A stretch of 64,000 bases of DNA from Acidobacteriota bacterium (GCA_016191015.1 JACPPM010000200.1:21954-85953), one strand, 5' to 3'; numbered from the stretch's first letter, positions 32,299 through 51,480 are shown. Notes: generated by a model not told the origin, from the letters alone. Translations and numbers: made by a program.

Positions 32299-33423
32299 GT
32301 GCGGCACGGAGACGGGAGGCCAGACATGAGCGGACGCCCCACAACGCAAACCGATCACGCCCGGCACCACCCCGCGCACTGCATGGCGCCAGGGTTGTTT
32401 CGATCACTGAAGGGCCGGAGTCGCACGGACCGCCCCGCCCTCGACATCAGATACACCTGGGGCGACGCTGAGTACCACTTCCTTGGCGTGGCACTTGGGG
32501 TCGAGGACATGCGTGTCTTACAGGCGCTGACCGCGATCGCGGGTGTGCGCGGTCTACAGCTCCCGCACGAGTCGACTCGGCCGCGAGACCCGCACTGGGA
32601 GCGTCTGCGCCGCACACTCGAGGATACGCCTGCCGACGGCAGTCCGCGGGACCACCGCTCCGCTACCGCTGCGGCTCTCGTGACGAGTCGCTATCGTCTA
32701 GCGGTCGAGGCCGGCTGGGAACCGCACTCCGCCCGCCGCATGCACCTCCTGCTGGAGGCGCTGGAGCGCCTTGGCGCGATCTCGCTCTACGTCACGCACG
32801 GCGCCAAGATCACGGGTCCGTACCGGCTGCTCGCCTTTTTGCTTGATCGAGACACCGACAGACTGCTGATCGCTCTCAACCCGCACATCGCCGCCACAAT
32901 CCTCGGCACCATACCCAGCGTGGCCTATGTCTCGCTCGTCGAGGCACGCGCGCTCACAACCGACCCCAGCCGCCTGCTGCACCAGTGGCTATCCGCGTGG
33001 ATCGGACCCGGCCAAGCGCGCCTCATCTCTATCGACGCAATCTGCTCGCATATCTGGCCCGACAGGGCCACGGACCGGAAGCTACGTGATCGGCGTCTCA
33101 AGGCCCGGGCCAGTCTCGACGAGATCGCCGCACTACCGTACTGGCAGGTCACCCCCCTCCGTCCTGACACCTGGCGCATTTCGCGCCGACGGGGCCTCCC
33201 CTCCGTCGGGGTGTACCGACATCGTCGTTGGGGTGTACCGGCATCGACGTTGGGGTGTACCGGCATCGACGCCCCCCCAGATGCCCATCCGCATCACAGC
33301 CGCTACCAGCGCGGGTCCCAGCCACCAGCGTCACTACCGGACGAAACCGCTCTAGTAGATACTAGAGAGTATCTAGGGCGCGAGGCCCTGGATGACCTCG
33401 CGCCCTCTGGGCCATGGAGATGA
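32299..33423 (+). CDS. Putative replication initiator-like protein holding internal iterons
   Basis: No recognizable catalytic motif. Placed between helicase-like and primase-like genes, and its 3' end holds three 22-bp direct repeats. Confidence 0.4.
   Translation: MRHGDGRPDMSGRPTTQTDHARHHPAHCMAPGLFRSLKGRSRTDRPALDIRYTWGDAEYHFLGVALGVEDMRVLQALTAIAGVRGLQLPHESTRPRDPHWERLRRTLEDTPADGSPRDHRSATAAALVTSRYRLAVEAGWEPHSARRMHLLLEALERLGAISLYVTHGAKITGPYRLLAFLLDRDTDRLLIALNPHIAATILGTIPSVAYVSLVEARALTTDPSRLLHQWLSAWIGPGQARLISIDAICSHIWPDRATDRKLRDRRLKARASLDEIAALPYWQVTPLRPDTWRISRRRGLPSVGVYRHRRWGVPASTLGCTGIDAPPDAHPHHSRYQRGSQPPASLPDETALVDTREYLGREALDDLAPSGPWR
33208..33273 (+). repeat. Three tandem 22-bp iteron-like repeats (ggggtgtaccgRcatcgWcgYY)
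   Basis: Units at 33208-33229, 33230-33251 and 33252-33273. The 22-bp period is not a multiple of 3, so this is a DNA-level repeat. Followed by a C7 run. Confidence 0.7.
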
Positions 33424-34220
33424 GGCGTCAGCTCGCGTGGTACGACTCCGTGGGCGTGGACCGGTTCGATATCGCCGTCTCTCTGAGCGCCGACAACAGC
33501 GACGGCATGATCTGGCACCGCGACATCACCGCCGATCGAGTCATCGCGCTCAGACCCTTCGCCGCGGCGCGCAACGCCGCTGGCGCGAACATCTACGTCC
33601 GGCCGGCTCGTGGTCACGACTGGCCGGTTCTCCTGCTCGATGACATCACTCGCTCTTGGGCGGATCGGATCCAGCGCGCCCGCGCCTGCTGCCTGGTCGA
33701 GACCAGTGCCGCCAATCACCAGGCGTGGATCCACTGCGCTCGTTCCCTGGATGAGCCGGAGCGGTGCGCGTGCCAGCGCGCGATCGCAACCAAGATCGGT
33801 GCGGATATCGGCTCGGTCAGTGGGGAGCACCTCGGCCGCCTCGCAGGCTACCGGAACAACAAACCCGGGCGCGGAGGGCACTGGGTACGCATCCATGCGA
33901 TCGGCGCCGGCCCAGCGTGGGATCCGTCGCGCGTCCTCGCCGCTCAGAGTCCCGGCGATCTCCCGCAGCCGACTCCACCCCCAGGGGGGGCTGTGGTTCA
34001 CGGCGGCGGCGGACCGGATGAGAGCGCCGACGAGTGGGGCTATGTATGCGGCCGGCTGACGTGGCTACGCGACTCGCACGCCTCGGACTCACGCATCACG
34101 GCCGAGCTCGCGGCGATGTCGGCGCAGCTGGAGCGACGCGCGGTCGCACGCCACAAAGCAAAGCCGGCACAGTACGCGGCCCGCACCGTCGCCAACGCAC
34201 GCCGGAGGATCGGGGTGTGA
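33414..34220 (+). CDS. Putative primase/replication protein (RepB'-like)
   Basis: Motifs NIYVRPARGHDWPVLLLDDI and QAWIH. Start overlaps the upstream stop. Assignment is tentative. Confidence 0.4.
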   Translation: MEMRRQLAWYDSVGVDRFDIAVSLSADNSDGMIWHRDITADRVIALRPFAAARNAAGANIYVRPARGHDWPVLLLDDITRSWADRIQRARACCLVETSAANHQAWIHCARSLDEPERCACQRAIATKIGADIGSVSGEHLGRLAGYRNNKPGRGGHWVRIHAIGAGPAWDPSRVLAAQSPGDLPQPTPPPGGAVVHGGGGPDESADEWGYVCGRLTWLRDSHASDSRITAELAAMSAQLERRAVARHKAKPAQYAARTVANARRRIGV

Positions 34221-34287
34221 CCCAGATGTAATCACGATCGACTTGCGCTTCTTTGCACATCATCATCAACGTCGGAGGGCAGCTCTA

Positions 34288-34500
34288 ATGGGATTCGAGT
34301 TCGAGGAAGAGACGAAGGAAACCACCAAAGCAATCAACGTCCGCGTGCCCCTGAGCCTATGCGCTGACTACGAGTCGGAGGCAACAGCTCGTAATACAAC
34401 TGTGAGCAATCTGATCGTCCAGGCGATGCGGTTTGCAATACGAGAGGCACAACGGCACAGACGACAGACTGCGAAGCCTGCGGCACACCGGGAGAGCTAA
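34288..34500 (+). CDS. Ribbon-helix-helix (CopG/Arc-like) DNA-binding protein
   Basis: About 70 aa with a beta-strand and two helices (KAINVRVPLSLCADYESEATARNTTVSNLIVQAMRFAI). GGAGGG ribosome-binding site upstream. Confidence 0.5.
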   Translation: MGFEFEEETKETTKAINVRVPLSLCADYESEATARNTTVSNLIVQAMRFAIREAQRHRRQTAKPAAHRES

Positions 34501-34687
34501 CCGATGACTCCGGAATTCCGGACCGGGAAGGACCCGCTTTGCGGGGGCAAGTTATCGTGTCCACTGCGTGTCCACATCACTGTTGTTTTTGCTTGGCGCT
34601 ACAGCACAAATCGCGTGGACAAATCCGGCCGCAGCATGCGGCGGAATGCGGAAGAGCTAAGTAGCTGATCCCAGGAAAGGGGACAAA

Positions 34688-35221
34688 GTGTCCACAAACA
34701 AGACAGTGCGGCGTCACGAGGTCCGGGCGCGTCTCACGGACGAGGAGTACGGCGCGGTAGCGCATCTCGCGCAGGAGTCCGGGCTCTCGCAGGCGGATGT
34801 CTTGCGGAGGCTCGTCCTCACGCACTCAAAGCGAAAGTGGGAGCGCGCCGCAGCGGGCGAAATAGAGCAGATGACAACCGATGTTGAGGCGCTGAGCAAG
34901 CGCGTCGAAGCGCTCCACAGCAGGCTCGGCGGTGTGGAGCATGGACTCATGGCAGGCATCGAGACCTTGTCAAAGGACATCGTCATCGCGCGGAACGCCG
35001 CCCTCGAAGTCCAGGCGGCGCGCGGAGGAAGCGGCAAGACTGCCCAAGCAATCGAGGCCGGCATCCAGGATCTCTCCGCAGCGGTCCGGGAGCTGATACG
35101 CATTGACTCCCTGACCGCTCTCCGCGTCCAGGCGGTGGTCGATCTACACCCGAGTGAGACGGTCCGCCAGCGATTCGGGCAGTTGGTCGAGCAGGTCCGC
35201 GCCCAGGGAGGCGAAGTCTGA
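34688..35221 (+). CDS. mobC: MobC-family mobilization (relaxosome accessory) protein
   Basis: N-terminal RHH (VRARLTDEEYGAVAHLAQESGLSQADVLRRLV) followed by a helical C-terminus. GTG start. Confidence 0.65.
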   Translation: MSTNKTVRRHEVRARLTDEEYGAVAHLAQESGLSQADVLRRLVLTHSKRKWERAAAGEIEQMTTDVEALSKRVEALHSRLGGVEHGLMAGIETLSKDIVIARNAALEVQAARGGSGKTAQAIEAGIQDLSAAVRELIRIDSLTALRVQAVVDLHPSETVRQRFGQLVEQVRAQGGEV

Positions 35222-36570
35222 TGCCGATCGTTAAGGCCGGATTTTCGGCCGGCTTGCACGGCCGGGCATCGCCGGCATCCTGGGGTCGCCGCGTAGCATA
35301 TCTCGGCCGCGATCAGGATCAGGCCGCACTGCTCCTGGCGCGAGACGGCACGATCTCCAAGACCGGGGCGCTAGCAGAGCTGGGCGGTAAGCAGGCCGAG
35401 TATCACGAGGCGATCGTCGCGTGGACCCCAAATGAATGCCGCGCACTGGCCGAGCGATTCGGATCAGCCGAAGCGGCGAAGGAGGGGATCGCGAGGAGTA
35501 TCGCGCGCAACCTCGCGGGTGAAGACGGCCATTATGTCGTCGCGATCCACGCCAAACGCCTCAGCACCGGCGAGCAGGCGTGGCATCTCCACGTCGCCAT
35601 CCAGGGACGGGAGCCCGCGCAGTTTCTGGGCGCGAGAGGCCGGGCCCAGCGTGCCGTCGATGCCGCATGGCGCGAATGCGCCCCGAAGCTGCCGATCAAC
35701 GACTGGACCAAGCACGCCCAGTTTGTCTGCATTCGTGCGGAGCTTTGCGCTCTGCAGACCCAGCAGAATAAGCTCTCCGGCGAGCGACGCAACGCACTCC
35801 GGCGAGCGCGCGGGCCGGCAAAGCTCGAGGTCGACAAGGAGTATGCCAGCAAGATGCAGGCGCTTGTCGAGCGTCGCCATGCCCTCGAGCTTGCGGCCGC
35901 CCAAGCCCGGTACGATGCTCGCGGGATCGGCGGGGGCGCGGAGCACCTTGTGGAGATCGAGCGCGCCGACATGCGTCGAGCGCAGGCGCTCTCGGTCATC
36001 GAGCGCAGATCGGAGGCGGTCCGGGCGCGGGGTGGTGCACTGACCCGTACGGATCGCCTGTGGCGCTCCGCACGCGCACAGGACGCCGGCGTCGGCCGAG
36101 GTATCGCGGCCGCCCTACGGGGCGTCCAGCGCGCCCAGCGGGGCATATCTGCCGGGATATCAGGCATGGCCGCGTCGGCGGCGATGTCGGCTCTGCCTGC
36201 GCCCATGCGGGCGATGGTCACGCCATTCCGCCTGGCCGGCCGTCTGATGGCCACCACGACACAGCCGGCACAGCGGGACGTCGAGAGTCCGCTTGCGCCG
36301 CTCCGCGCGCTGCGCCCCGTCATGGCAGGACTACGGTGTGTCGTGCACCTGGGGTCCGCTGTGCTCGGGCCTGCTCTCGCGCCCGCCAAGATTCCAACGG
36401 AGGTCGTCAGCTCCCCACGCAGCGCGATCACCAATGCTGCCGAGCACGCCGCCGGAGCGGCCGTGGGAGTCGTCGGCGGACCCATAGCTGGTGGCGCTGC
36501 CAAGGCGCTGACCGCTGTTCTGCGGGTCCTGAGTTCCGCCCCCCAAGTCATCCAAGAAGTCGAGATATAA
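35221..36570 (+). CDS. Relaxase/mobilization nuclease
   Basis: Follows mobC with a TGATG overlap. His-rich motif HLHVAIQGRE plus an Ala-rich C-terminal tail. Family assignment is tentative. Confidence 0.55.
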   Translation: MPIVKAGFSAGLHGRASPASWGRRVAYLGRDQDQAALLLARDGTISKTGALAELGGKQAEYHEAIVAWTPNECRALAERFGSAEAAKEGIARSIARNLAGEDGHYVVAIHAKRLSTGEQAWHLHVAIQGREPAQFLGARGRAQRAVDAAWRECAPKLPINDWTKHAQFVCIRAELCALQTQQNKLSGERRNALRRARGPAKLEVDKEYASKMQALVERRHALELAAAQARYDARGIGGGAEHLVEIERADMRRAQALSVIERRSEAVRARGGALTRTDRLWRSARAQDAGVGRGIAAALRGVQRAQRGISAGISGMAASAAMSALPAPMRAMVTPFRLAGRLMATTTQPAQRDVESPLAPLRALRPVMAGLRCVVHLGSAVLGPALAPAKIPTEVVSSPRSAITNAAEHAAGAAVGVVGGPIAGGAAKALTAVLRVLSSAPQVIQEVEI

Positions 36571-36592
36571 CGTCACGGAAAAGGAGTCACCA

Positions 36593-37117
36593 ATGAGCAC
36601 CCATGACCCGAATCCACCCCAAGGGGGGGCTGTGGTTCATCCGCGCGACAACATGTCGCCCCCATCGCCTCAGGCACTGGCTGCAGAAGAGAGGCGTTTG
36701 CGTCGATGGATCGATCAATGGTACCGAGATCGCGCGCCCGGCCGGTGCGCCCGATACGGATCCCAGATGCTGGATCCGGTGTGGCTGGAGATCGAGGCCA
36801 CGGACTGGGGCTGGTGCTCAGTGCCTCTCATCTCCGTGGCGGAGTCATGGCGTAGGCACGGCCTCACGCGGCGTCTCCTCCAGTACCTGGAGTCGTTGCG
36901 AGGGATGCGGACGATCATGGTGAGGAATGTTCACTCTGACCATCTCCGAGAGGCTCTGGCGCGCTACGGTTACACAGATCTCGGCGGCGGCACGCACTGG
37001 CGGCGAGATTTGAGGTCGCCGGCGTCTTGGCTGCGTGGTCTCGCCATGCTCCGTTCTTGGTCGCGCCAGGTGTCATCGCCAGGACTCAGGGCAGGCGATG
37101 TTGCGCGGCGTGACTGA
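36593..37117 (+). CDS. Hypothetical protein (possible GNAT-like fold)
   Basis: AAGGAG ribosome-binding site. Weak motif-A-like RRHGLTRRLLQYL. Confidence 0.35.
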   Translation: MSTHDPNPPQGGAVVHPRDNMSPPSPQALAAEERRLRRWIDQWYRDRAPGRCARYGSQMLDPVWLEIEATDWGWCSVPLISVAESWRRHGLTRRLLQYLESLRGMRTIMVRNVHSDHLREALARYGYTDLGGGTHWRRDLRSPASWLRGLAMLRSWSRQVSSPGLRAGDVARRD

Positions 37118-37182
37118 CCGCGGCCGGCGGCAGAGACGTGGGTAGTCCGGTCCGAACAACATTGCAGCAAGGAGGAGCACAG

Positions 37183-37788
37183 GTGGCGTCAGAAGAGATG
37201 AATCAATCAGCGGTTCGCTGTCCGAAATGCAACGAAGGAGAGATCGTCGAGCGCGACAAATTCTGGGGGTGCTCCCGATGGGGCCGAGACGCGGATGGTG
37301 CCGTGACGGGGTGCGACTTCAAAGTGTGGAAGGAAGTCGCACATGGAAAGATCACGGAAAAGGACCTGAGGGAACTGGTTGCGGGCGAAATAACGCGCAA
37401 GATCAAGATGCGCAACAAAGCTGGCAAGGATTTCGAGGCGCCGTTGCACCTGAACCAGGAGACGTGGCGGGTCGATTTCCTGTTTGGGGAGGATGTGAGC
37501 ACGACCAACGGCGGCCCGACGCCTGGGGCCGCGATCGGCGCTTGCCCTCAGTGCCATGAGGGGAGCGTGATCGCCTTCGGGGCCGGCTGGCAGTGCAGCC
37601 AATGCAGCTGGAAGCTGTGGCGGCGCAAGTGCGATGCGGAGCTCAGCGAGGATATGGCAAAGACCCTGATCTCCGGGGGCGTGACGCCGGTGCTCGCGAT
37701 GACGAGTCGCGAAGGAAAGAAATTCAAGGCGGCGATGTCCCTTAAAGAAGACGGATCGGTGGAGTTGCGATTCGAGGACGATCACTAG
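37183..37788 (+). CDS. Stand-alone tandem topoisomerase-type C4 zinc-ribbon protein (YrdD-like)
   Basis: Two CxxC..CxxC ribbons (CPKCNEGEIV...WGCSRW and CPQCHEGSVI...WQCSQCSW). AGGAGGA ribosome-binding site before the GTG at 37183. Confidence 0.55.
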   Translation: MASEEMNQSAVRCPKCNEGEIVERDKFWGCSRWGRDADGAVTGCDFKVWKEVAHGKITEKDLRELVAGEITRKIKMRNKAGKDFEAPLHLNQETWRVDFLFGEDVSTTNGGPTPGAAIGACPQCHEGSVIAFGAGWQCSQCSWKLWRRKCDAELSEDMAKTLISGGVTPVLAMTSREGKKFKAAMSLKEDGSVELRFEDDH

Positions 37789-37815
37789 CGCGCCGTGCCA
37801 GGACAAGGAGAAGTA

Positions 37816-38019
37816 ATGCTAATCCGCATCGAAGTCAATACAGCCGCCGAGGCAGACGAGGTCCTTGACGCGTTGCGTCATCGCTTCTGGGGCCGCATCC
37901 GGGAAGTCGCCCACACACCAGTGTGCCGAGATGTGTATCTGATGCCTCAAAGTGTCGAGGTGCCAGGCCGGGAGGGACGCACATGCAGAGCGGACAGGCA
38001 GGACGAATCGCAATCATGA
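37816..38019 (+). CDS. Small hypothetical protein
   Basis: 67 aa. Its stop overlaps the metzincin start (ATGA). Confidence 0.3.
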   Translation: MLIRIEVNTAAEADEVLDALRHRFWGRIREVAHTPVCRDVYLMPQSVEVPGREGRTCRADRQDESQS

Positions 38020-40646
38020 CTACGCGCGGAAGGATGGCGAGTAGGAAGGGATTACCCTGGAGGGTACTCATGGGATGCGTATTGGTGTTGTTGGCGCTAT
38101 TGGGTGCTAGTTGCGTCGAGGGTGTGGGGGCTGAACTCTTCCCCTCGAGTGCGGCGTCCGTGATTGGCGAGCCGCTTCGGGTATCCCGCGTGGAGGTCGT
38201 CACCGTCAATCCCGATGTACTGACGGAACAAGGGCCGACGCGCATCGGCCTGCGGATTTTCGGCGTGGAGCGCGTCGCCGAGCGCACCAAGATGGAACGG
38301 CGATCACGCACCAATTGGAGTTGGTTCGGGCACCTCGAGGGGGATAGCAGCAGTTCGGTGATCCTGGTCAACTGGGACGGGGATCTGTACGGCACGATCT
38401 CTGGATCGGCCGGCCGCTTCGCGGTCCTGCCGGGGTGGGAGGCCGGAACTTGCCGGTTGCTCGAGCCGGTGGTATCCCCCGGCCCGCAGTGCGCTGCCAT
38501 CGAGTTCGGGGACATCCTCCCCGCGGAATACACGGCGATCGGCCCGGAGCCGATCACGCCGGCCGCTCCGGATGTGGTGACGGTCAACGTCCTAGTGATG
38601 TATACACAAGGCGCCGAAGACCGCGCCACCCAACTCGGTGTCACGATCCCAGCTGTGATTCAGGTGCAGGTCGACTCTACGAACCAGGCTTATGCTCAGA
38701 GCCAGGTTAGCCACCGGATTGCTCACACATTGGCGAAGGTGAGCTACGCCGACAGCGGATCGCTCTACACAGATCTGACGCGCATGGTGGTTTATGGCGA
38801 TGGCTACTTCGACGACCTGCTCGTACAGAAGCAGGCGGTGGCAGCGGACATCCCTGTGTTGGTCGTGGGATTGTCGAGTGACGCCGGCGGCCTCGGCTCG
38901 CTCATGACGGTGGTGAGCGAGGCCTTCGCGCAGGACGCCGCAGCAGTCCTCAACACTGACAACGTGGCATTTGCCTGGGCATTTTCATTCGCGCATGAGA
39001 TCGGCCACGTGATGGGAGTGCGGCACAACTGGGAGGACGATCCACAGACCACCCCATACATCTACGCGCACGGCTACGGCAAACAAGAAGCCGATTTCCG
39101 GGATATCATGAGTTATCCCAACGCATGTCCATCGGGATGCGTTGCGAGGAACTACTTCAGTAACCCGAATCTCAATTTCAACGGCTATCCGATGGGGATC
39201 GCGGAGGGAGCGGGCCCTCAGCCAGCGGATGCCGTGCGAGCACTGAACAATACAGCCCCCACGGTCGCAACGTTCCGGAACTATCTTGCCACCTGCACCT
39301 ACGCTCTCAACGCTTACTCGCGCAGCGTGAGCTCTGCGGCGGGCAGCGGGTCATATGGTGTAACGACCACCGATGGGTGCCGGTGGTCAGTCAACACCAG
39401 CGACTCCTGGATCACGATCACATCGGCGCCATCTGCCTATGGCACCAGCGTAGTAACCTATACGTACGGGGAGCACGGCAGCCAGTCGAGCCGCGCCGGC
39501 ACGATTACCGTGACCCCGGTTGATGGTAGCAGCGGCACCATCAGCTATATCCTCACTCAGTCCCCGGCCGGTGCATGCACCGTGTCAACCAATCCGACAG
39601 GCAGCGTGTTCTTCGCGACAGCTGGTGGCATCGGCAGCTTCGCGATCAACGTGAACAGCCAAGGCTGCGCCTGGACCGTAAGCAACGGCCTGCCGTGGGT
39701 CACGATCACGAGCGCCACCAGCGGGACGGGGAACGCCACGGTGACGTACACCGTGGCGCCGAACGCGAACTCAATGCGGAGCGGATACATCCAGGTGAAC
39801 GCCGGCGGCTTTCAGGCGCAGTACGCTGTAGCGCAGCAGGGCAGGAGCTGCCCTGTTGTGCTCACACCGGGATCGGCCAGCTATGCGTCCGGTGGTGGAA
39901 GCGGATCATTCGGCATCACCGAAACGAGCGGGTGTGGCTGGACCGCGACGAGTTACGATTTGTGGCTCACGATCACTGGCGGAGCGTCCGGCACCGTGAG
40001 CTACTCCGTGGCCTCCACGAGCTCCACCACCGGACGCACCGGCTCGATCGTGGTTGATACGGGGGCGGGGAATCAGACTTTCATCGCCATGCAAAATGGG
40101 GTGGGCCAGACATGCGCTTACGCCGTGACTCCGTTCTCAGAGACATGGGATGACGACGGGGGATCGACATCGGTGTCGATCACCACAACCACCGGCTGCG
40201 CATGGAACTCCGTGAGTAACGATGCCTGGATCTCGTTCTCGGCTGGCTCCGGGAGCGGCAGCGGCTCGGTCACGATGAGCGTGGATGCCAACCTGGCGCC
40301 GGCTGCGCGCACGGGGTCGGTGGCGATCGCGGGCACCACGTATGCGATCGCGCAGGAAGCCTACGACAGCGGCGGGGGCGGCGGTGGCACGACCCCTGTG
40401 ATCAACACGATCAGCAGCAAGAAGGCGAAGCCGAAGACGAGCGCAAAGCTCGTCGGCACGAACTTCTCTGCAACCAAGACGCAGAACACGGTTTACTTCG
40501 GCAAATACACAGCCACCATCAAGAGCGCCGGCACGAGCCAGCTCAAGGTCACGATCCCATCGCAGTGCAAGTCCGGGAAGACGTATCAGGTCTCCGTCAA
40601 TACCAATGACGTCCGCAGCAACACGATCCCCTTTCAGGTCAAGTAG
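38016..40646 (+). CDS. Secreted metzincin zinc protease with four BACON-like repeats and a C-terminal IPT/TIG domain
   Basis: Signal peptide. Metzincin motif HEIGHVMGVRH (HExxHxxGxxH). Repeated GC[AGR]W..W[IL]T[IF] modules. C-terminal TIG-like beta domain. Confidence 0.75.
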   Translation: MTTRGRMASRKGLPWRVLMGCVLVLLALLGASCVEGVGAELFPSSAASVIGEPLRVSRVEVVTVNPDVLTEQGPTRIGLRIFGVERVAERTKMERRSRTNWSWFGHLEGDSSSSVILVNWDGDLYGTISGSAGRFAVLPGWEAGTCRLLEPVVSPGPQCAAIEFGDILPAEYTAIGPEPITPAAPDVVTVNVLVMYTQGAEDRATQLGVTIPAVIQVQVDSTNQAYAQSQVSHRIAHTLAKVSYADSGSLYTDLTRMVVYGDGYFDDLLVQKQAVAADIPVLVVGLSSDAGGLGSLMTVVSEAFAQDAAAVLNTDNVAFAWAFSFAHEIGHVMGVRHNWEDDPQTTPYIYAHGYGKQEADFRDIMSYPNACPSGCVARNYFSNPNLNFNGYPMGIAEGAGPQPADAVRALNNTAPTVATFRNYLATCTYALNAYSRSVSSAAGSGSYGVTTTDGCRWSVNTSDSWITITSAPSAYGTSVVTYTYGEHGSQSSRAGTITVTPVDGSSGTISYILTQSPAGACTVSTNPTGSVFFATAGGIGSFAINVNSQGCAWTVSNGLPWVTITSATSGTGNATVTYTVAPNANSMRSGYIQVNAGGFQAQYAVAQQGRSCPVVLTPGSASYASGGGSGSFGITETSGCGWTATSYDLWLTITGGASGTVSYSVASTSSTTGRTGSIVVDTGAGNQTFIAMQNGVGQTCAYAVTPFSETWDDDGGSTSVSITTTTGCAWNSVSNDAWISFSAGSGSGSGSVTMSVDANLAPAARTGSVAIAGTTYAIAQEAYDSGGGGGGTTPVINTISSKKAKPKTSAKLVGTNFSATKTQNTVYFGKYTATIKSAGTSQLKVTIPSQCKSGKTYQVSVNTNDVRSNTIPFQVK

Positions 40647-40655
40647 GAGCAAGTG

Positions 40656-43508
40656 ATGAAACGATTGGTTTTCGCATTCTGTGTTTTCGGGCTAGGGATT
40701 TCGGCGCACAGGGCAGGCGCGCAAAGCGGTACGATCGCGATCACGGGTGTGGTGCCGGATGCGAATGGCCATACCGCGACCGTGAACTACAGTTGGAGCC
40801 AGACCGGGCCGGGGTCCAACAAACTCATGACGGGCGACCTCTACGTGCGCATCCTACAGGGTGTGTCACTAGCGCCTGACATCTACAATGATGGGTTCGG
40901 CACCATGTGTACCCAAGCCGCGTCCATGACGTGCGCTGGCACAACCGCGTACTTGGTGGGCTACGGCCGCTTCGGGGTGTGTGTGAACAGCGCCAGCAGC
41001 ACAGGTTCCTTCACCATGGACGGCCTCCTCCCGGGCGTTGGCTACACAGTACAGTTGATCGGGTACCTCGAATGGACAGCAGATTGTGCGAGCCCTGTGC
41101 CCGTGGCTACGCTCTGCATCACGAGTGGTGTCAGCGCCTTGACGATGGGCGCTGGTCAGCCTCCTGTCGTCACAACGCTCGCTGCTTCCAGCGTCACTGG
41201 AACCACCGCAACGCTGAACGGAACGGTCAACCCGAACAACCTCAGCACAAGCCACTACTTCGAATGGGGCACAACTGTTGCGTATGGTAATACCACGTCT
41301 GTCGGACTCCTGTCCCCAGGCCCTCTCAACGGGGCCTGTACCACTCTAGCCACCGCCGGAGGATGGATAGCGAACGCGGTATCAGCGGGGCTGACCGGCT
41401 TGACGGGCGGGCAGACGTACCATTTCCGGGTCGTGGCCACCAACGCACAGGGCACGACCTACGGCGGCGACCAGCAGTTTGCGGCCGCCCAAGTTCCTTC
41501 TCTCACAACCAACCCTGCAACGGGCGTTGGCAGCACCACAGCCACCCTTAACGGTGTCGTCACGACCAACGGCTTAACCGCGAGCTGGTGGTACGAGTAC
41601 GGCACCGGCAGCGGTGTCTATCCCAACAGCACACCAGGCGGGACCGTGCCGGGCGGCACGCCCAGCGCGGCAGTCAGCGTGACTCTCAGTGGGCTACTGC
41701 CCAACAGCACATACTATTTCCGTCTCGCTGGTGCGAATGCGAACGGGACGGGATACGGGATCGAGCGCAGCTACACGACTGGCAGCGCCGCTCCTCCTAC
41801 GGCTATCACGGGTGCAGCATCGGGGGTGAGTACCGTGTCGGCGATACTGACAGGGACCGTCAATCCCGCAGGATCCGCAACCATGTATTGGTTCGAGTGG
41901 GGGACATCGGTCGGCTACGGCAACACGACCCCATCGCAATCCGCTGGCAATGGCACGAGCAACGCGTACGGCAGCTATCCGCTGAGCGGACTCACGAGCG
42001 GCCAAACCTATCACTATCGGGTCGTCGCGCAGAACGCATCAGGTACCGGGTACGGCTCGGATGTCGCCTTCACGACAGGCGCGACTAATCCCCCGGCCGT
42101 GACGACCGGCTCCGCATCGAGTGTGGGCACGACGTCCGCAACCCTTGGAGCCACCATCAATCCGAATAGCTCCGCCACGAGCTGGTACGTCGAGTATGGT
42201 CCGACCACCAGCTACGGGCAGACCGCCTACGGCGGCACAGTCCCGCCAGGCTCCTCGAACGTCTCAGTCAACGTTACCATAACAGGACTGACCCCAGGCA
42301 CTCTCTACCACTGGAGGCCCGTCGGCACGAACGGCATTGGCGGACGCAGCTTCGCGCCGATGGCGTATGGCACGACGTACGGCGCCGACTCGACGTTCAG
42401 CACGACGAGCGTGAGCTATCCCGGGCCTACGGTGACGACGGAAGCAGCGTCGAACGTGGGTTACACAGGCGTGGTTTGCAACGCGACCGTGAATTTCCAA
42501 GGCGACAGTGGCACCTACTGGTTCGAGCTGAGCACATCACCGGGCGGTCCATACACGATCACCTCATCCACCGGCTCCGGTGCGGGAGCGACGGACGTGT
42601 ACGTAAGCCGCGCTGTCTCCACGCTCTCCCAGGGGACGACTTACTACGCTCGCGCCGGTGCACAGAATTCGGGAGGAACTACGTACGGTGCGGATGTCTC
42701 CTTCGTCACAGACACTGCCGGCGTGGGCGTACCCATTGCGAACACGCTCGACGCCAGCAACATCACGACTACGGGTGCTGTGCTCAACGGCACGTACCAG
42801 CCGAACGGGGCGTCGTCGAGCCAGGTGTGGTTCGAATGGGGCACCAGCGCATCGAGTCTCTCAAACGCCACGAGCATCCAAAACGGAGTTGGTGGATCCA
42901 CCGAAACCAGCTACAGCCGGAGCCTCACCACTCTCACCGCGGGAGGCACCTACTACTTCAGGCTGGCGTGCAGCACGCCTACGGGAGGCACTGCCTACGG
43001 CGCCACGCTCACTTTCACCACCAGTACCACGCCGGTCACGTATCTCGAATTCAGCAACTTCAAGTGCAAGTGGAAGGATGTAGCCAACTCCAATCTGCTT
43101 GGTGGTAGCGGAAAGCGTGGTCTCGCTCGCAAGAGCCGGGCCTCGCTCACGTTCACCGGCACCGGCATCGATCTCTACTCGATGCTCGACAAGACACTCG
43201 GCAAGATGAAAATCACGATCGACGGTGCCGCGCTTCGGCATCCCGTCACAATTAGACGGCTCACCGCCGACCGTGGGCTCGTCACGGACATCATCAATCC
43301 CACGAAGCTCGGTCGGAAATCCGGGAAGGGATCTCCGCTCTCCACCACGGTGGATCTTTACACACCGGGAGCGACACAGTTCCAAGAGATTCTCTACTCG
43401 ATCTCCGGGCTATCCAGCGGACAGCACACACTGCGAGTCGACGCGGTCGCGCCCAAGGGGACGAAGCGCTACCACATTTTCGTGGACGCGGTGCGAGTGC
43501 GTGAGTGA
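40656..43508 (+). CDS. Secreted protein with about nine FN3-like repeats and a C-terminal beta-sandwich domain
   Basis: Signal peptide (MKRLVFAFCVFGLGISAHRAGAQ). Repeated ~90-aa modules (T.TL.GTVNPN...YWFEWGT...YG.TT...GQTYH[FY]RVVA.N..G). AGGAGC ribosome-binding site. Confidence 0.75.
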   Translation: MKRLVFAFCVFGLGISAHRAGAQSGTIAITGVVPDANGHTATVNYSWSQTGPGSNKLMTGDLYVRILQGVSLAPDIYNDGFGTMCTQAASMTCAGTTAYLVGYGRFGVCVNSASSTGSFTMDGLLPGVGYTVQLIGYLEWTADCASPVPVATLCITSGVSALTMGAGQPPVVTTLAASSVTGTTATLNGTVNPNNLSTSHYFEWGTTVAYGNTTSVGLLSPGPLNGACTTLATAGGWIANAVSAGLTGLTGGQTYHFRVVATNAQGTTYGGDQQFAAAQVPSLTTNPATGVGSTTATLNGVVTTNGLTASWWYEYGTGSGVYPNSTPGGTVPGGTPSAAVSVTLSGLLPNSTYYFRLAGANANGTGYGIERSYTTGSAAPPTAITGAASGVSTVSAILTGTVNPAGSATMYWFEWGTSVGYGNTTPSQSAGNGTSNAYGSYPLSGLTSGQTYHYRVVAQNASGTGYGSDVAFTTGATNPPAVTTGSASSVGTTSATLGATINPNSSATSWYVEYGPTTSYGQTAYGGTVPPGSSNVSVNVTITGLTPGTLYHWRPVGTNGIGGRSFAPMAYGTTYGADSTFSTTSVSYPGPTVTTEAASNVGYTGVVCNATVNFQGDSGTYWFELSTSPGGPYTITSSTGSGAGATDVYVSRAVSTLSQGTTYYARAGAQNSGGTTYGADVSFVTDTAGVGVPIANTLDASNITTTGAVLNGTYQPNGASSSQVWFEWGTSASSLSNATSIQNGVGGSTETSYSRSLTTLTAGGTYYFRLACSTPTGGTAYGATLTFTTSTTPVTYLEFSNFKCKWKDVANSNLLGGSGKRGLARKSRASLTFTGTGIDLYSMLDKTLGKMKITIDGAALRHPVTIRRLTADRGLVTDIINPTKLGRKSGKGSPLSTTVDLYTPGATQFQEILYSISGLSSGQHTLRVDAVAPKGTKRYHIFVDAVRVRE

Positions 43509-43598
43509 GTCAAACGACGCGCCAGGATGGCCCAGGACGCGTCCGGAGAGGCGAGGTAGGGGTCTAGGCATCCCCCCGAACAACGAAGGAGGACGGGC

Positions 43599-44060
43599 AT
43601 GAAGAATGAGTTGGACGACCAGATTGCGCGGACCGCGGAGCGGCTGTCGCGGCGTGGGGCCTGCCGCCGGCGACGCATGCGGCACCAGAAGAAGTCCATG
43701 CGCGCTGACCGCTGGGCGATTCGAGCTCGCGAAATTGTCCCGCCAGAGCATGGGCGCATGGCGTGGGCATCCGATGCGGCGCGTGAGATCCTGCAGGACC
43801 TCTTGCGTGTGGGTAAGGTGCCAACGCAGATCTTCGGCGTCTTGGAGCGTGAGTTGGGTGTGTGCAAGAGGCGCGGAGCAAATTCGGCATTATTGCTGAA
43901 TGAGCCGCTCGCGGTAACGATCCTCGAGGCGGCTGCGCAGCGCGTAAATGGACGGGATCGCCTCGCGCGTGTCGTTGCCGTCCTGTTCCTCTCACTCGAG
44001 GAGTGCCTGCTGGCGACGGGGACGCGGAAGGTAGTCTCTGGCGCAGCGGTGGAGCGCTAG
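43599..44060 (+). CDS. Hypothetical protein
   Basis: 153 aa, basic N-terminus, no recognizable motif. Confidence 0.35.
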   Translation: MKNELDDQIARTAERLSRRGACRRRRMRHQKKSMRADRWAIRAREIVPPEHGRMAWASDAAREILQDLLRVGKVPTQIFGVLERELGVCKRRGANSALLLNEPLAVTILEAAAQRVNGRDRLARVVAVLFLSLEECLLATGTRKVVSGAAVER

Positions 44061-44061
44061 G

Positions 44062-45876
44062 ATGAGTGCTGGCGTTATGCTGGAGCAGGTGTGGCCATGG
44101 ATCGCGGCGTGGCCCTTCCGCCTCGTGGCTGCCGTCGTCGCGCGCAAGCCCGAGGTCCTCGCAGTGGTGCCGCACCTGCCAGCCGTTGCGCTGGCGTGCT
44201 GGGGACTCTGGTTGTGGGCTCGTCTCACGCGCAGGCAGCTACTCCATACGTGGCCGCGCCTCTCGAATTTCCTGGGCTCGGGATGGCTCGCGCCTATCGC
44301 GACATGGTTCACTGCGCTCACTCTGATGCTCATTCGCGGCACCTGGCTCGTGCGAGTCCTGCCAGGCCACGAGGTCGGTGCAGTATCGCACGCCGGCGCC
44401 CTCATGCTCTATCCGGCCGCGGCGTTCTGCGCATGGCGGATTCTGCCGCCGCTGGCGCGCAAGGGCAACCTCGGATCGGCCGTGTGGGCCGCGGTGAGGA
44501 ATGTTCGGGTGCGGTCCGGCGCTCCCTTCCTTCTGCCGGTGCGCATACCTCTTCGGCCGTGCAGAAGGCCCCGAGCGTGGGACATGGGACCCGCTGTGCT
44601 GGCACCTGACCGCGGCACCGTCTGCCGGCACACGCTGGTCCTTGGAGGGTCCGGAGCCGGAAAGGGTGCGTCGGTGCTCGGTCACATCATACAGAGCACG
44701 CACCTGCCGCTCATCTATCAGGACGTCAAGGCGGAGTGCCCGCTCCTTGTTGACCGGTGGCAGCGCCGCGGCAAGCCGCCGATTGTGTGGGGCGCGTCGC
44801 GTCCGGGCGGCTGGCCGTCGCTCAGCTGGAATCCTCTCCAGGAGGCATACGACGACCCAGATTTCGAGGATGCGTGCGGCGGGCTGGCAGGTGCGCTGCT
44901 ACCAGTGGTCAAGGGCGAGAACGCATGGGTCACCGACACGGCCCGTCTGCTCCTCACGCACATTTTTTCGCAACGCGTGTACAGAGCCCTCAGCGAGATT
45001 CGCGACGAGCTGAAGGGGCACGGAATCGCGGCGGTTCTCACGAGAGTCGGTTCGGCGGCTGGGCTCGACGAGCAGCTCGCCGGAAAGAACGCGAAAGAGT
45101 ACGCGTCGAACGCCCTCCAGACGACCCTTGATCACTTTGGGGTCGGGTGGGCGCGCGCCGCCACGACTCTGCACAACTTCAGTCTGTCAGATGTCCTGAC
45201 CACCGACTGCTACGTGCTATCGAATGAGTCCGATGAGAAGCGGCGTCTTCCCCTGCAGGTCTTCTGGCGGATGTTGTTCCGCAGAATGCTCAAGGCGTCC
45301 GAGCTGGGAAATATGCTATTGCTGGATGAGGGGCTCGCCGCAGGCTACATCCCGGGCTTGGCAGATGCGCTGAATACGATCCGCAGCAAGGGTGGTGCGA
45401 TCGTCTTCGCGATTCAGAATAGCGGGGGACTCAAGGCCGTCTACCGGGACGAGGCGGAGGCCGTGTCGGAGGCTTTCGCCTCAAAGATTGTCCTGCTCAG
45501 CGGGCTTAATCCGGAGGACCTCCAAGCACTCACGAAGCAGATGGGCGAGTTCACAGTGGTCCGCGGACGGCCGCTGCTCCCAGTCAAAGGTGAGCAGATT
45601 GCATCCTTGCTGCCGATCGAGTACGCGAGCAAGCTCGCGCTCCTCCCGAAGCAGTGGTGGGGCGTCATTCGAATCCCGGGTGTGGTGCGGACGGGCCGGC
45701 CCATCCTGGCGCGGATGATGGCGAGTAGTTTCGCCGTCCAGGAGCCGCACCCACACCTGGCGGAGGCGATGCAGCGGGCCTATCCCGCCCGACCATTCGC
45801 AGGCACAGCTGTGAATATCGTCCCGGAGGCTACTCCGGCCGAGCCAGACTCCACACCGCAGGCATTCGGACTATAG
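44062..45876 (+). CDS. Type IV secretion coupling protein (VirD4/TraG/TrwB-like)
   Basis: N-terminal TM helices. Walker A LVLGGSGAGKGASVL and Walker B MLLLDEG. Confidence 0.7.
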   Translation: MSAGVMLEQVWPWIAAWPFRLVAAVVARKPEVLAVVPHLPAVALACWGLWLWARLTRRQLLHTWPRLSNFLGSGWLAPIATWFTALTLMLIRGTWLVRVLPGHEVGAVSHAGALMLYPAAAFCAWRILPPLARKGNLGSAVWAAVRNVRVRSGAPFLLPVRIPLRPCRRPRAWDMGPAVLAPDRGTVCRHTLVLGGSGAGKGASVLGHIIQSTHLPLIYQDVKAECPLLVDRWQRRGKPPIVWGASRPGGWPSLSWNPLQEAYDDPDFEDACGGLAGALLPVVKGENAWVTDTARLLLTHIFSQRVYRALSEIRDELKGHGIAAVLTRVGSAAGLDEQLAGKNAKEYASNALQTTLDHFGVGWARAATTLHNFSLSDVLTTDCYVLSNESDEKRRLPLQVFWRMLFRRMLKASELGNMLLLDEGLAAGYIPGLADALNTIRSKGGAIVFAIQNSGGLKAVYRDEAEAVSEAFASKIVLLSGLNPEDLQALTKQMGEFTVVRGRPLLPVKGEQIASLLPIEYASKLALLPKQWWGVIRIPGVVRTGRPILARMMASSFAVQEPHPHLAEAMQRAYPARPFAGTAVNIVPEATPAEPDSTPQAFGL

Positions 45877-45886
45877 AGGAGGACAG

Positions 45887-46849
45887 ATGAGACAGAGAAT
45901 CGAAACACTGATCGTGCAATTGCGCCTTCGGGCAGGTTGGCGCGCACCGCTCGTTGTCGCTTGCGTATTGGCCGCTTGGATGTTTCTGCTGCCAACCACG
46001 GCTTATGCCCAGGAGACTATTGGCAGCAAGTTTATGGAGGACACGATGCGCAAAGCGCTCGTGCCCGTCGTCATGGCGTTCATGACCAAGGTCAGTAACT
46101 TCGTGACCCCATTGCTGGCGGGGTTGGCTACAATCTTCGTAATCTGGACCGCGATCAAGAACTTCCTCGCAGACAGGCCCTTCCAAGAGACCTTCGCAGA
46201 GATTCTGATGACACTGCTCATCGTCACGGCCCTCACGAACACGGACAACTACAGGTGGCTCTTCTGGGACATGATGTATGGTGGGCTCTACACGGAGCTT
46301 GTTGTCCCTGCCGGCGAAGGGGATACGGGCTTCCCGGCGGCTGTGCAAGAGCTGGCTCACCAGCAAGCGGAACGCTCCGCGAAGTGGAACCTCAGCACCG
46401 GCATGACGATCATCCAGCGCATCGGCGAATCCATCAACACACTCGAGACAGGAGGCGTTGCTTGGCTCATGCAAATCGGCGCACTCTTTGTCGAGCCCCT
46501 CATGACGTCCGCCACCATCTTTGCGATAATGTCGATCGCTTTCTTCGGGGCGATCGGCCAGATATTTCTCTCCATGTGGCTACTCGACTTCACGAAGGAC
46601 TATACGAAGAAGTGGTTCGGCTGCTATATGGGCGCGATATTCTCGTTGGTAGCAATCAGCTTCTTCGCGCCATTTCTGAGCGGGTGGTGGAGTGATGTTG
46701 TGGCCGAAGCGGTACAACTCGAGAACGCGAACAAGGGCATCACGGAAAAAATGCTTACTCCTGGCCTCATGAAGCAGTTCGTGTGGAGTTTCTTCGGCAT
46801 CATGGCAGCCCTCAAGGCGCCCAGTTTGGGGAAGGAGCTGTTCCGGTGA
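45887..46849 (+). CDS. Polytopic membrane protein (VirB6/TrbL-like candidate)
   Basis: GAGGAGG ribosome-binding site. At least five hydrophobic helices. This region is visibly AT-richer than the rest. Confidence 0.45.
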   Translation: MRQRIETLIVQLRLRAGWRAPLVVACVLAAWMFLLPTTAYAQETIGSKFMEDTMRKALVPVVMAFMTKVSNFVTPLLAGLATIFVIWTAIKNFLADRPFQETFAEILMTLLIVTALTNTDNYRWLFWDMMYGGLYTELVVPAGEGDTGFPAAVQELAHQQAERSAKWNLSTGMTIIQRIGESINTLETGGVAWLMQIGALFVEPLMTSATIFAIMSIAFFGAIGQIFLSMWLLDFTKDYTKKWFGCYMGAIFSLVAISFFAPFLSGWWSDVVAEAVQLENANKGITEKMLTPGLMKQFVWSFFGIMAALKAPSLGKELFR

Positions 46850-47796
46850 GTGTGATGATGATGGATGCGACGCGACAGCGGTTGGTAGCAGCGCTCATCG
46901 CTCTCGCAATCATGATGGCAATTGTCGTTCCGTGCGCGAGCGCAATGCCTCCGGTCTTCATGAACGAAGTCATCGACATGGCTCAAGACAACCAGAAGGT
47001 AGCGAGAATTCTGAGCGAGCTCGGGAGCTGGCACGCCACGGTGTCATCCGCTATTCAAACCTACCAGATGATGCGTCGGATGACCGAGACACTCACATCG
47101 GTTGTGGGGTCACTCGACAATCTCAGTCTGCGGGTAGTCCCACGTATCAAGTTGACGAGCCTCCTTGGGCTCGCATTCAACAACACAGAAATGCAGAAGT
47201 TTTTCGAGCTGATGGAAGGTGGGGCTAAGCTCAGCGATCTAGCGGAACTCTCCGGTTTCATGCAGAACCACTTTCTCACGCAGTACGACACTATTTTCCC
47301 TGACAGCTACAATCCGGTCAGCACAGACCCCGAGACCCCTCCCTTGCGTGCGAAGGATTGGGAGTTTGTGTGGGGGTGGGGGACGCTGAACCCGACCGAC
47401 GCGGAGCGCGGCATGCTAACTGCCGCCGAAGGTCGGATGGCTTGGCGCAAGATGCTCGCCGTCCGTAACCAGGCCAACCTCGCATCCATGCGCGGCATGG
47501 CGGAAGACAACACAACCGCGCTCTCTGCCTTGGCGGACAAGGTCAGGGAGGCCGAGAAGAGCGGAAAAGCTTACGACGCGATCATAGCGCAGGTCGGTGC
47601 CATGCTCGGCGACGTGCAATTGCAGACCGAACTCATCACCGGCCAGCTCGAGATGCTGGTCCAGGCAGGGGGCGAGGAAGTTGACCACATCGGCGCGGTT
47701 CGCAACGCCACACCAGAGGCTGTTGAGGCGATTTGCAAAGACGCCGGTGACGGATTGAATGGCTCGGCCTCGCTCTACTTCAGGCTGGGGTGGTGA
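46846..47796 (+). CDS. Hypothetical exported protein (possible VirB5/TrbJ-like)
   Basis: GTG start overlaps the upstream stop, 8 nt after AAGGAG. N-terminal hydrophobic segment, helical/coiled-coil rest. Confidence 0.4.
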   Translation: MSVMMMDATRQRLVAALIALAIMMAIVVPCASAMPPVFMNEVIDMAQDNQKVARILSELGSWHATVSSAIQTYQMMRRMTETLTSVVGSLDNLSLRVVPRIKLTSLLGLAFNNTEMQKFFELMEGGAKLSDLAELSGFMQNHFLTQYDTIFPDSYNPVSTDPETPPLRAKDWEFVWGWGTLNPTDAERGMLTAAEGRMAWRKMLAVRNQANLASMRGMAEDNTTALSALADKVREAEKSGKAYDAIIAQVGAMLGDVQLQTELITGQLEMLVQAGGEEVDHIGAVRNATPEAVEAICKDAGDGLNGSASLYFRLGW

Positions 47797-48093
47797 TCGC
47801 CGCCATGCCCCGGTGCGAAGACGGAGTGCCGGCAGTCACGACGAGTCCTTCGCCGTCGCTCGCCTGGGCCCGCTCTCACGCCCCGCGTCTCGGGCACGCT
47901 TCGCTCTCCGGCTCCGTTGCAGACGGGTCCCCTCCCGCCTTCGGCGGGAACCCTCCCCATCTTCACTCCGCCTCCGGCCTGAGAAGCGGGGACGCGGGCC
48001 TTTAGGGCGAGGCGACGGCGAAGGACTCATCGTGAGACAGGCGGCGGCAGACAATACACAGTAATGCGTGTATTGCCGCCAAAGCCGCACGAG

Positions 48094-48120
48094 GCGCCGG
48101 CTCAGGATCTATCGTGAGAC
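48094..48120 (+). repeat. Element-internal repeat family B, partial copy (…caggatctatcgtgagac)
   Basis: Matches the 3' part of the copies at 48967-49034 and 50277-50335. Confidence 0.55.
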
Positions 48121-48135
48121 AACCGTAAGAACTCC

Positions 48136-51325: not shown

Positions 51326-51404
51326 CAAATCCCCCCAGACCCCCCTCCTAATACTAATATGCGCTGTCTCCGCAGCGCATCTATCTGATGCGGCTCAGAG
51401 TGAT

Positions 51405-51442: not shown

Positions 51443-51480
51443 ATCCCTTCTCCTCGTGCCCGTCCTGCCATCCGGGCCAC

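Follow-up and report, generated by a model that had tools for sequence, protein, structure and literature searches.

Gene content of the mobilization region

This study concerns a window of 64,000 nucleotides (64 kb) from an Acidobacteriota bacterium (GCA_016191015.1, JACPPM010000200.1:21954-85953), and all coordinates below are those of this window. A preliminary description of the sequence had pointed to a group of mobilization genes without a mating channel at positions 34688-47796. This region forms the central operon of an integrated element of 23.8 kb, which spans positions 30652-54431 and is flanked by a tRNA-Arg gene and a displaced copy of the 3' half of such a gene. The genes of the operon, eleven by count, are co-oriented on the plus strand with gaps of -1 to 134 nt, and ten of them are itemised here, from the gene for a relaxosome accessory protein to a gene for an exported protein. 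They include the genes for an HUH relaxase, a type IV coupling protein (T4CP) and a membrane protein of the TrbL/VirB6 family. The relaxase and the exported protein are 100% identical to the NCBI hypothetical proteins HYX75_15125 and HYX75_15165 of an Acidobacteria metagenome-assembled genome (MAG), which are encoded on a contig of 124.8 kb. The G+C content of the window is approximately 62%, and the sequence outside the element is ordinary chromosome, with pcnB, sensor kinases and genes for glycerol and malate metabolism.

A new family of HUH relaxases

The relaxase gene (35221-36570, plus strand) encodes a protein of 449 amino acids, with a catalytic domain at approximately residues 1-160 and a C-terminus that is helical and then of low complexity. 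The preliminary description had put it forward as an overlapping relaxase candidate with the sequence HLHVAIQG, and both features are present: the TGA of the accessory gene and the ATG of the relaxase gene share one base, and WHLHVAIQG occupies residues 121-129. Single-sequence searches of Pfam, NCBIfam and PDB gave no match, and the window protein is not recognised by the curated profiles for relaxases (Pfam PF03389 MobA_MobL and PF03432 Relaxase; NCBIfam). A word-indexed protein search returned one relative only, and an exhaustive HMMER search with residues 1-210 matched 43 cluster representatives. Across 37 aligned relatives, with identities down to 25%, the sole invariant residues are Y27, H110, H122, H124 and G140. 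Y27 is the catalytic tyrosine near the N-terminus, upstream of the metal-binding motif, and H110, H122 and H124 make up the three-histidine motif H...HxH. The catalytic tyrosine and histidine triad, on which the assignment had been said to hinge, are thus conserved in all of the aligned relatives.

An AlphaFold2 model built from the alignment of the relaxase family has a mean pLDDT of 94.5, and a Foldseek search with this model gave no significant match. When the family profile was compared by HHalign with RSF1010-type MobA, for which the reference was the protein of an RSF1010-like IncQ1 plasmid, the histidine block aligned with MobA LAIHAGGGENPHCH (P = 6e-4). The fold is that of an HUH conjugative relaxase of the MOBQ-like type. 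Pfam PF03432 was weakly matched by six of the 37 relatives, with 1.7e-3 as the best value. A PDB profile search with the full-length relatives retrieved designed helical proteins only, by way of the low-complexity C-termini, and these matches were set aside as noise. We conclude that the 449-amino-acid protein is a true relaxase of the HUH type, with MOBQ as its nearest match in fold, and it is predicted to nick DNA. Since it matches no curated profile, and only six relatives weakly match PF03432, it represents a new family within the relaxase fold. The family was previously unannotated and, among named genomes, is found only in Acidobacteriota, as judged from five named genome matches and the source MAG.

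Relaxosome accessory proteins and a candidate origin of transfer

The gene preceding the relaxase (34688-35221, plus strand) encodes a ribbon-helix-helix (RHH) accessory protein of the relaxosome, 177 amino acids in length (Pfam NikA-like, 7.3e-5, and RHH_1, 1.3e-3, below gathering score; NCBIfam MbpA, 3e-3). It had been described as a MobC with an RHH N-terminus. The RHH assignment holds, but the family is NikA/MbpA-like rather than MobC. A second and smaller RHH protein is encoded at 34243-34500 on the plus strand (Pfam RHH_5, 1e-3, below cut-off). It is 79% identical in L001, a related locus with a relaxase 90% identical to that of the window, and is possibly a second relaxosome or regulatory factor.

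The 187-nt spacer between the two RHH genes (34501-34687) contains blocks of perfect identity between the window and L001. A candidate origin of transfer (oriT) is located here at 34533-34583 on the plus strand, within the interval 34500-34690 in which it had been expected. It consists of the hairpin CCCGC-TTT-GCGGG (34533-34545), followed by GGCAAGTT (34546-34553) and, after 21 nt, by CATCACTGT (34575-34583). The loci of the family have a common architecture upstream of the accessory gene, in which a short hairpin rich in G+C, with a loop of 3 nt in the usual case, is directly followed by GGC[AG]AG[AT]T. The sequence CAT[GC]ACTGT is found 9-11 nt beyond this motif in most loci, as compared with 21 nt in the window. 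In L001 and L003-L007, the site precedes the accessory gene by 134-209 nt. Six loci that were fetched later provided an out-of-sample check: the site is 88-141 nt upstream in L008, L010, L011 and L013, it is at the edge of an over-long gene call in L009, and the hairpin is followed by GGCAGGAT in L012, the most distant relative. The stems vary in sequence between loci, and the pairing is kept. A perfect stem of at least 5 bp that ends at most 3 nt from the motif is present in seven of 11 lineages, compared with 2% of background positions.

We also scanned one genome per species, 185,579 species in total, for the DNA pattern GGTGGCAAGWTN{9,11}CATGACTGT. It was identified in five contigs, all of them from Acidobacteriota MAGs: two Solibacteraceae, one Holophagaceae, one Geothrix and one 'Acidobacteria bacterium'. 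A relaxase of the family is encoded immediately downstream on the same strand in four of the five contigs (HMM E-values 1e-64 to 1e-109), and a T4CP is then present in both of the loci that extend far enough. Hence, the signature predicts the relaxase gene in out-of-sample genomes. In the fifth contig (L015, 60-1599), an exact match to the oriT motif and the beginning of an RHH accessory ORF are followed not by a relaxase but by an integrase in the opposite orientation, which cuts the ORF short; the copy has either been disrupted or received a nested insertion.

The site is flanked by four copies of (G)TGTCCAC at 34557-34695, of which three are direct and one is inverted (34615). They are the only copies in the element and are conserved in L001, and we infer that the RHH protein or proteins may bind to them. 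In R1162, the nic site is 8 nt 3' of the hairpin. By analogy, the nick would be placed at or just after GGCAAGTT. Two other features of the spacer were considered and rejected. The palindrome CCGGAATTCCGG (34510-34521) lacks conservation in L001, and a second hairpin, GCCGCAGCATGCGGCGG at 34627-34645, is kept in L001 only and not in the distant relatives, and is not part of the core oriT.

Coupling protein, VirB6-family protein and exported protein

The VirD4/TraG-type T4CP (44062-45876, plus strand; 604 amino acids) matches three Pfam coupling protein families above the gathering score, namely T4SS-DNA_transf with 45.8 bits (5e-12; cut-off 20.1), TraG-D_C with 43 bits (cut-off 22) and TrwB_AAD_bind with 37 bits (cut-off 20.5). 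The Walker A motif GGSGAGKG is located at residue 195, and hydrophobic segments at the N-terminus form the membrane anchor. A Walker B candidate, the DE-containing LLLDEG, was read by eye from the translation. TrwB provided the sole matches among PDB sequences, and a search of the species-representative genomes with the T4CP alignment yielded no relative. The VirD4-like coupling protein of the preliminary description is thereby corroborated.

The same is true of the polytopic VirB6-like protein, which is encoded by the next gene (45887-46849, plus strand; 320 amino acids). It matches Pfam TrbL (1.3e-12) with 48.4 bits, against a cut-off of 25.9, over profile positions 1-191 of 215, and contains approximately five hydrophobic segments. 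No BLAST-level relative was found in 72,556 plasmids (tblastn, IncP included) or in the JGI metagenomes. The N-terminus of the protein (45887-46230, residues 19-115) also shows a sub-threshold match to the TrbC/VirB2 pilin family (1.3e-4; 22.6 bits, cut-off 27.9), which could be either a composition effect or a fused pilin-like leader.

The last gene of the operon (46855-47796, plus strand) encodes an exported, mostly helical orphan of 313 amino acids. The signal-peptide-like N-terminus and the predicted helices agree with the preliminary description. An ORF start at 46783 is probably too far upstream, and 46855 is the most likely start. A homologue search with this protein returned only itself. 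No Pfam family matches it, even at E<=10, and there is no VirB5/TrbJ signal in either Pfam or NCBIfam. A single-sequence AlphaFold2 model was too poor for a fold search (pLDDT 39.6). The features compatible with VirB5/TrbJ are the signal peptide and the helical content only.

Search for channel genes

A Pfam scan covered both strands of the element and all 154 open reading frames (ORFs) of at least 60 amino acids, among them the shadow ORFs. As previously stated for VirB4, VirB11 and VirB9/10, no member of the VirB4, VirB11, VirB8, VirB9, VirB10 or VirB1 families was identified among these ORFs. Specifically, none of the 154 matches the VirB4-family ATPase profiles CagE_TrbE_VirB, AAA_10 or DUF87. 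The sole extra match was to a BrnT toxin. The only ORFs of more than 500 amino acids in the element are the T4CP and two secreted proteins, and thus no ATPase of the size of VirB4 is hidden among them. A T2SSE ATPase at 9540-11291 on the minus strand was considered as a possible VirB11 and rejected, as it has the size of PilB/GspE (583 amino acids) and is located 20 kb outside the element.

Relatives and the conserved core

The relaxases in L003-L011, L013 and L016-L019 are 27-46% identical to that of the window. A small ORF occupies the accessory position in all of the relatives, with BLAST similarity to the window protein in L001 and L003 only. A T4CP follows the relaxase wherever the contig extends past it (L003, L005-L011, L013, L016 and L018), with 29-37% identity to the T4CP of the window where BLAST was run. 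A tyrosine integrase, ParA or HTH_17 gene is often present within a few kb. For these loci, no Pfam family of mating-pair formation (MPF) is on record, and several ORFs of 470-650 amino acids in them are without any Pfam match. One relative, L013, appears to be a complete element of approximately 12 kb between its integrase and housekeeping genes.

Altogether, the accessory-relaxase-T4CP core is found in small integrase-bearing elements in approximately twelve independent relatives. Since this core is kept across the relatives, the three genes and the oriT constitute the conserved core of a family of small integrative and mobilizable elements (IMEs). Added to this core in the lineage of the window are the IncQ-type replicon, the VirB6-family gene and the genes for the exported orphan and the large secreted proteins. 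In L001 (6414-7259, compared with 44062-45876 in the window), the T4CP is only about 41% identical, against 90% for the relaxase, and two cargo genes are absent, which indicates module shuffling between close elements.

Integration, replication and cargo genes

The tRNA-Arg (ACG) gene predicted by ARAGORN is located at 30625-30701 on the plus strand, and its 3' half (30652-30701) serves as attL. The attR site at 54381-54430 on the plus strand, a displaced tRNA-Arg 3' half, is identical to it at 47 of 50 positions. Two of the three differences are ten positions apart in the region of the T-arm, G/A at 30677 and C/T at 30687 (30677-30697 compared with 54406-54426). Should the two pair with each other, the copy at attR would be the genuine 3' half of a slightly different tRNA-Arg. 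A doublet of GGGTACCAC with a spacing of 11 nt is located just inside attL (30748-30767, plus strand; the repeat is also reported by TRF) and a second one, with the same spacing, just inside attR (54246-54265, plus strand). The four copies are the only ones in the window, one doublet per end of the element, and are probably arm-type sites of the integrase. The tyrosine integrase itself (53047-54204, minus strand) adjoins the distal repeat and contains an arm-DNA-binding domain (Pfam Phage_integrase, 5.4e-14; Arm-DNA-bind_3, 2.8e-10). An AlpA/excisionase-like helix-turn-helix protein is encoded near the opposite end (31002-31307, plus strand; Pfam HTH_17, 3.8e-9).

The left arm contains a replicon of the IncQ type, with its genes on the plus strand. 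It consists of the helicase RepA (31392-32294; Pfam AAA_25, 2.9e-30), which shows 47% identity to the IncQ protein across 95% of its length, the initiator RepC (32299-33423; Pfam RepC, 1.4e-52), which is 38-40% identical to IncQ RepC, a RepB-type primase (33414-34220; Pfam RepB_primase, 1.2e-14) and three 22-bp iterons at 33204-33271 that are a candidate oriV. The iterons were reported by TRF (period 22, 3.1 copies, 93% matches) and by a second repeat search, and their period matches that of IncQ plasmids. They are located within repC, in a 3' extension of the ORF that lies past the part for the RepC domain (residues 17-296 of 374). Either the C-terminal tail of RepC is encoded over its own binding sites, or the repC ORF is over-extended.

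The right arm contains a partition pair on the minus strand (49064-49953), made up of ParA (49300-49953) and a ParG-like RHH protein (49064-49315), both identified with Pfam. A toxin-antitoxin cluster at 50957-53050, also identified with Pfam, comprises two BrnA antitoxins, one BrnT toxin and the proteins DUF5615 (PIN-like) and DUF433. A gene-poor stretch 3' of the operon includes an imperfect direct repeat of 32 nt (48008-48039 and 48090-48121, 81% identity), and a 21-nt tandem repeat is found between the BrnA genes (51404-51444). These repeats are possible centromere or operator sites. No sigma-70 promoter or intrinsic terminator was found 3' of the operon.

Five further genes of the operon, all on the plus strand, complete the inventory together with the five described above. 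Immediately after the relaxase there is a 174-amino-acid protein with a weak GNAT signal (36593-37117; Pfam Acetyltransf_7, 5e-3), which is 37% identical in L001. It is followed by a 216-amino-acid zinc-ribbon protein (37138-37788; Pfam Toprim_Crpt, 1.1e-25), which is absent from L001. This protein contains the C-terminal zinc-ribbon repeats of a topoisomerase alone, without the topoisomerase core, and might assist transfer by binding DNA. The middle of the operon (37923-43508) is occupied by two large secreted-protein genes. The first encodes a zinc metalloprotease of 907 amino acids with a signal sequence, a HEIGH motif and BACON and TIG domains according to Pfam (37923-40646), which is cargo and absent from L001. 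The second encodes a 951-amino-acid protein with a signal peptide and fn3 domains (40653-43508; Pfam fn3, 4e-16), which is cargo or an adhesin. Of the two, only the fn3 protein is conserved in L001, with 46-54% identity. Both could be cargo or cell-contact factors. Finally, a 153-amino-acid protein without any Pfam family match is encoded 1 nt upstream of the T4CP gene (43599-44060) and is 54% identical in L001, where it has the same position.

Comparison with known mobilizable elements

The integrase, the HTH_17 protein and the att repeats with 47 of 50 identical positions, together with the oriT candidate, the relaxase and the T4CP, and without a complete MPF set, identify the element as an IME. 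Comparable known systems include the IncQ plasmids RSF1010 and R1162, from which the element differs in several respects. It is inserted at a tRNA gene by a tyrosine integrase, its relaxase is not fused to a primase and is too divergent for Pfam and NCBIfam, and its accessory protein is RHH/NikA-like, whereas the IncQ plasmids have MobB or MobC. It also encodes a T4CP and a VirB6-family protein of its own, neither of which is present on the IncQ plasmids, and its host phylum is the Acidobacteriota.

In gene organization, the element resembles GIsul2, the IncP islands and the PIMEs, which similarly contain a tyrosine integrase, an AlpA-like helix-turn-helix protein and RepA (and RepC), with or without a relaxosome (bioRxiv 10.64898/2026.01.12.698999; PMC5704250). 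Like the element, they have an incomplete MPF set, with a TrbL/VirB6 gene but without VirB4. In PIME4, as here, the core genes are oriented opposite to int, and alpA and repA are located at the far end (bioRxiv 10.64898/2026.01.12.698999; PMC5704250). The PIMEs share a module set of int, alpA and repA together with trbJ and trbL (bioRxiv 10.64898/2026.01.12.698999). Of these five genes, int, an AlpA-like HTH_17 gene, repA and a TrbL-family gene are present in the element, and trbJ is not recognisable with the general profiles of Pfam and NCBIfam. However, GIsul2, the IncP islands and the PIMEs have been reported from Pseudomonadota only, use IncP helpers, have no T4CP and, when a relaxase is present, it is of the MOBP type, unlike the T4CP and the MOBQ-like relaxase found here. 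Their TrbJ, TrbK and TrbL proteins are recognisably IncP-like, whereas the TrbL-family protein of the element has no BLAST similarity to plasmid TrbL, and TrbJ and TrbK are not recognisable. The element therefore falls outside the PIMEs in the sense of a Pseudomonadota host with IncP-related transfer genes, as it comes from an Acidobacteria MAG and its VirB6-like protein has no tblastn match in plasmids.

The combination of a relaxase with its own VirD4 protein and no MPF genes is known from the CloDF13-type plasmids and from Streptococcus IMEs, in which the own T4CP is thought to replace that of the helper (PMC5704250). All known mobilizable elements with a T4CP of their own pair it with a MOBC relaxase and not with an HUH enzyme (PMC5704250). 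Here, the partner of the T4CP is instead an HUH relaxase of the MOBQ-like type, and a VirB6-family gene is present in addition. Some MPF subunits are known from IMEs, as TrbJ/K/L in GIsul2 and the IncP islands and as TraG/H/N in SGI1 (PMC5704250). Like the element, SGI1 is an IME that carries few MPF subunits, among them the VirB6 homologue TraG, and these re-shape the apparatus of the helper (PMC5704250). Unlike the element, SGI1 has no canonical relaxase or T4CP, uses an IncA/C helper and encodes subunits of the MPF_F type. Taken together, the element is an IME in which both the combination of parts and the relaxase family are new.

Proposed transfer cycle and alternative explanations

We consider it probable that the region is the operon for DNA processing and coupling of an IME of 23.8 kb in a tRNA-Arg gene of an Acidobacteria MAG, and that this IME depends on a helper. 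This supports the earlier proposal of a mobilizable element that uses a helper type IV secretion system (T4SS), the helper dependence being deduced from gene content. Building on the gene identities, we infer the following steps of a life cycle. The tyrosine integrase and the AlpA/Xis-like HTH_17 protein would excise the element by recombination between the 50-bp att repeats, and the resulting circle would be replicated from the three 22-bp iterons by the IncQ-type RepC, the RepA helicase and the RepB primase and partitioned by ParA/ParG. In the relaxosome, the RHH accessory protein or proteins would bind the TGTCCAC repeats, and the MOBQ-like HUH relaxase would recognise the hairpin-GGCAAGTT site at 34533-34553 and nick nearby. 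Nicking is predicted to be performed by Tyr27, with the metal held by His110, His122 and His124, and the relaxase would stay covalently attached to the 5' end. The relaxase-DNA complex would be received by the VirD4-type T4CP of the element, which would then dock on the MPF apparatus of a co-resident conjugative element. Docking on a helper would be necessary because the element contains no VirB4, VirB11, VirB2-3, VirB7-10 or other channel or pilus gene.

The Acidobacteriota host is presumably diderm, and, to our knowledge, conjugation is essentially unstudied in this phylum. The helper would most plausibly be of the MPF_T (VirB/Trb) type, a type of machine that includes TrbL/VirB6. T4SSs of the MPF_T type, as potential helpers, have been found in Acidobacteria (PMC3548315). 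The Acidobacteria are among the non-proteobacterial T4SS hosts that have been listed as diderms (PMC3548315). The VirB6-family protein, perhaps together with its exported neighbour, would most likely insert into or replace the inner-membrane platform of the helper, in a role analogous to that of TrbJ/K/L in GIsul2, the PIMEs and the IncP islands or TraG/H/N in SGI1. This would tilt the machine of the helper in favour of the IME or allow exclusion to be evaded.

Several observations weigh against this interpretation. Extremely divergent channel parts among the small unannotated ORFs would be compatible with an absence at the level of Pfam, and no helper T4SS is seen within the window, where the flanks contain housekeeping genes. 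The element could also be inactive. Moreover, no relatives could be detected for the VirB6-like protein or the exported orphan, neither of which occurs in the other members of the family, and a role for them in transfer is suggested only by family membership and gene position.

The last point leads to the most credible of the alternatives, which is nevertheless unlikely. It retains the helper-dependent IME but regards the VirB6-like and exported proteins as cargo, as entry exclusion proteins or as having an unrelated membrane function. It would account for the lack of both genes in every other relaxase/T4CP locus of the family and of close homologues for either, and for the missing VirB5/TrbJ signal in the exported protein. 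However, the VirB6-like protein has a solid Pfam match to TrbL/VirB6 (191 of 215 profile positions, 48.4 bits), both genes follow the T4CP gene in the operon with gaps of 10 and 5 nt, and the precedent of TrbJ/K/L in GIsul2, the PIMEs and the IncP islands and of TraG/H/N in SGI1 makes a role in transfer the simplest explanation (PMC5704250).

It is improbable that the element is the remnant of a decayed integrative and conjugative element (ICE), with the relaxase, the T4CP and the VirB6-family protein as relics of a full T4SS. A T4CP gene next to a VirB6-family gene does resemble the edge of an MPF_T cluster, the two large cargo genes in the middle of the operon could mark a rearrangement, and L015 shows that copies of the family do get disrupted. 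However, approximately twelve relatives share the core and none has a recorded MPF gene, which indicates that the state without MPF is ancestral for the family. Also, all ORFs of the operon are intact and tightly packed with coupled starts, and the same holds for the integrity of the att repeats, the arm-type sites, the iterons and the oriT. No pseudogene fragments of a T4SS were found among 117 shadow or small ORFs.

We regard it as highly improbable that the element transfers itself through a reduced, non-canonical channel made of the T4CP, the VirB6-like protein and the exported and secreted proteins of the operon. The operon does encode a DNA-pumping ATPase, a polytopic platform protein of the T4SS inner membrane and an exported helical protein, as well as two large secreted proteins whose domains (BACON, TIG and fn3) are adhesin-like, and the VirB6-like N-terminus gives the sub-threshold VirB2/TrbC pilin signal (1.3e-4). 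Nothing resembles an outer-membrane core complex, however, although the host is presumed to be diderm, the relatives in the family lack even a VirB6-like gene, and the large secreted proteins are variable cargo. In addition, VirB4 is absent, although it is the one ubiquitous component of T4SSs (PMC4027160). Least probable of all is that the 449-amino-acid protein is a rolling-circle replication initiator (HUH Rep) and not a conjugative relaxase, since a tyrosine upstream of the three-histidine motif is the arrangement of relaxases, unlike that of Rep proteins. The presence of the core without recorded MPF genes in approximately twelve independent relatives argues for a mobilizable lifestyle of the helper-dependent IME rather than for a decayed ICE or a hidden channel.

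Implications

Tentatively, and with slightly less than even confidence in the proposal as a whole, we suggest that the element represents an undescribed lineage of IMEs, restricted to Acidobacteriota among named genomes, in which the new HUH relaxase would always be accompanied by its own T4CP and by a signature oriT (hairpin, GGCAAGWT, approximately 10 nt and CATGACTGT). In the member in the window, the captured genes would comprise a replicon of the IncQ type and a gene of the VirB6 family. This member would thereby supply the entire inner-membrane path in contact with the substrate, made up of relaxase, T4CP and VirB6, and borrow only the ATPase, the pilus and the outer-membrane core, which would be a PIME-like strategy outside the Pseudomonadota.

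The relaxase family is missed by standard profiles, and the mobilizable elements that carry it are thus presumably under-counted. The precise oriT signature alone retrieves members of the family from genomes. The element also indicates that the combination of a relaxase with its own coupling protein is not confined to MOBC relaxases, and that the PIME/GIsul2-like design, with an integrase, AlpA, IncQ replication and VirB6, extends beyond the Pseudomonadota, from which it has exclusively been reported. If it is true that the T4CP and the VirB6-family protein substitute for components of the helper, the element would help to define which subunits of the T4SS govern the choice of substrate.

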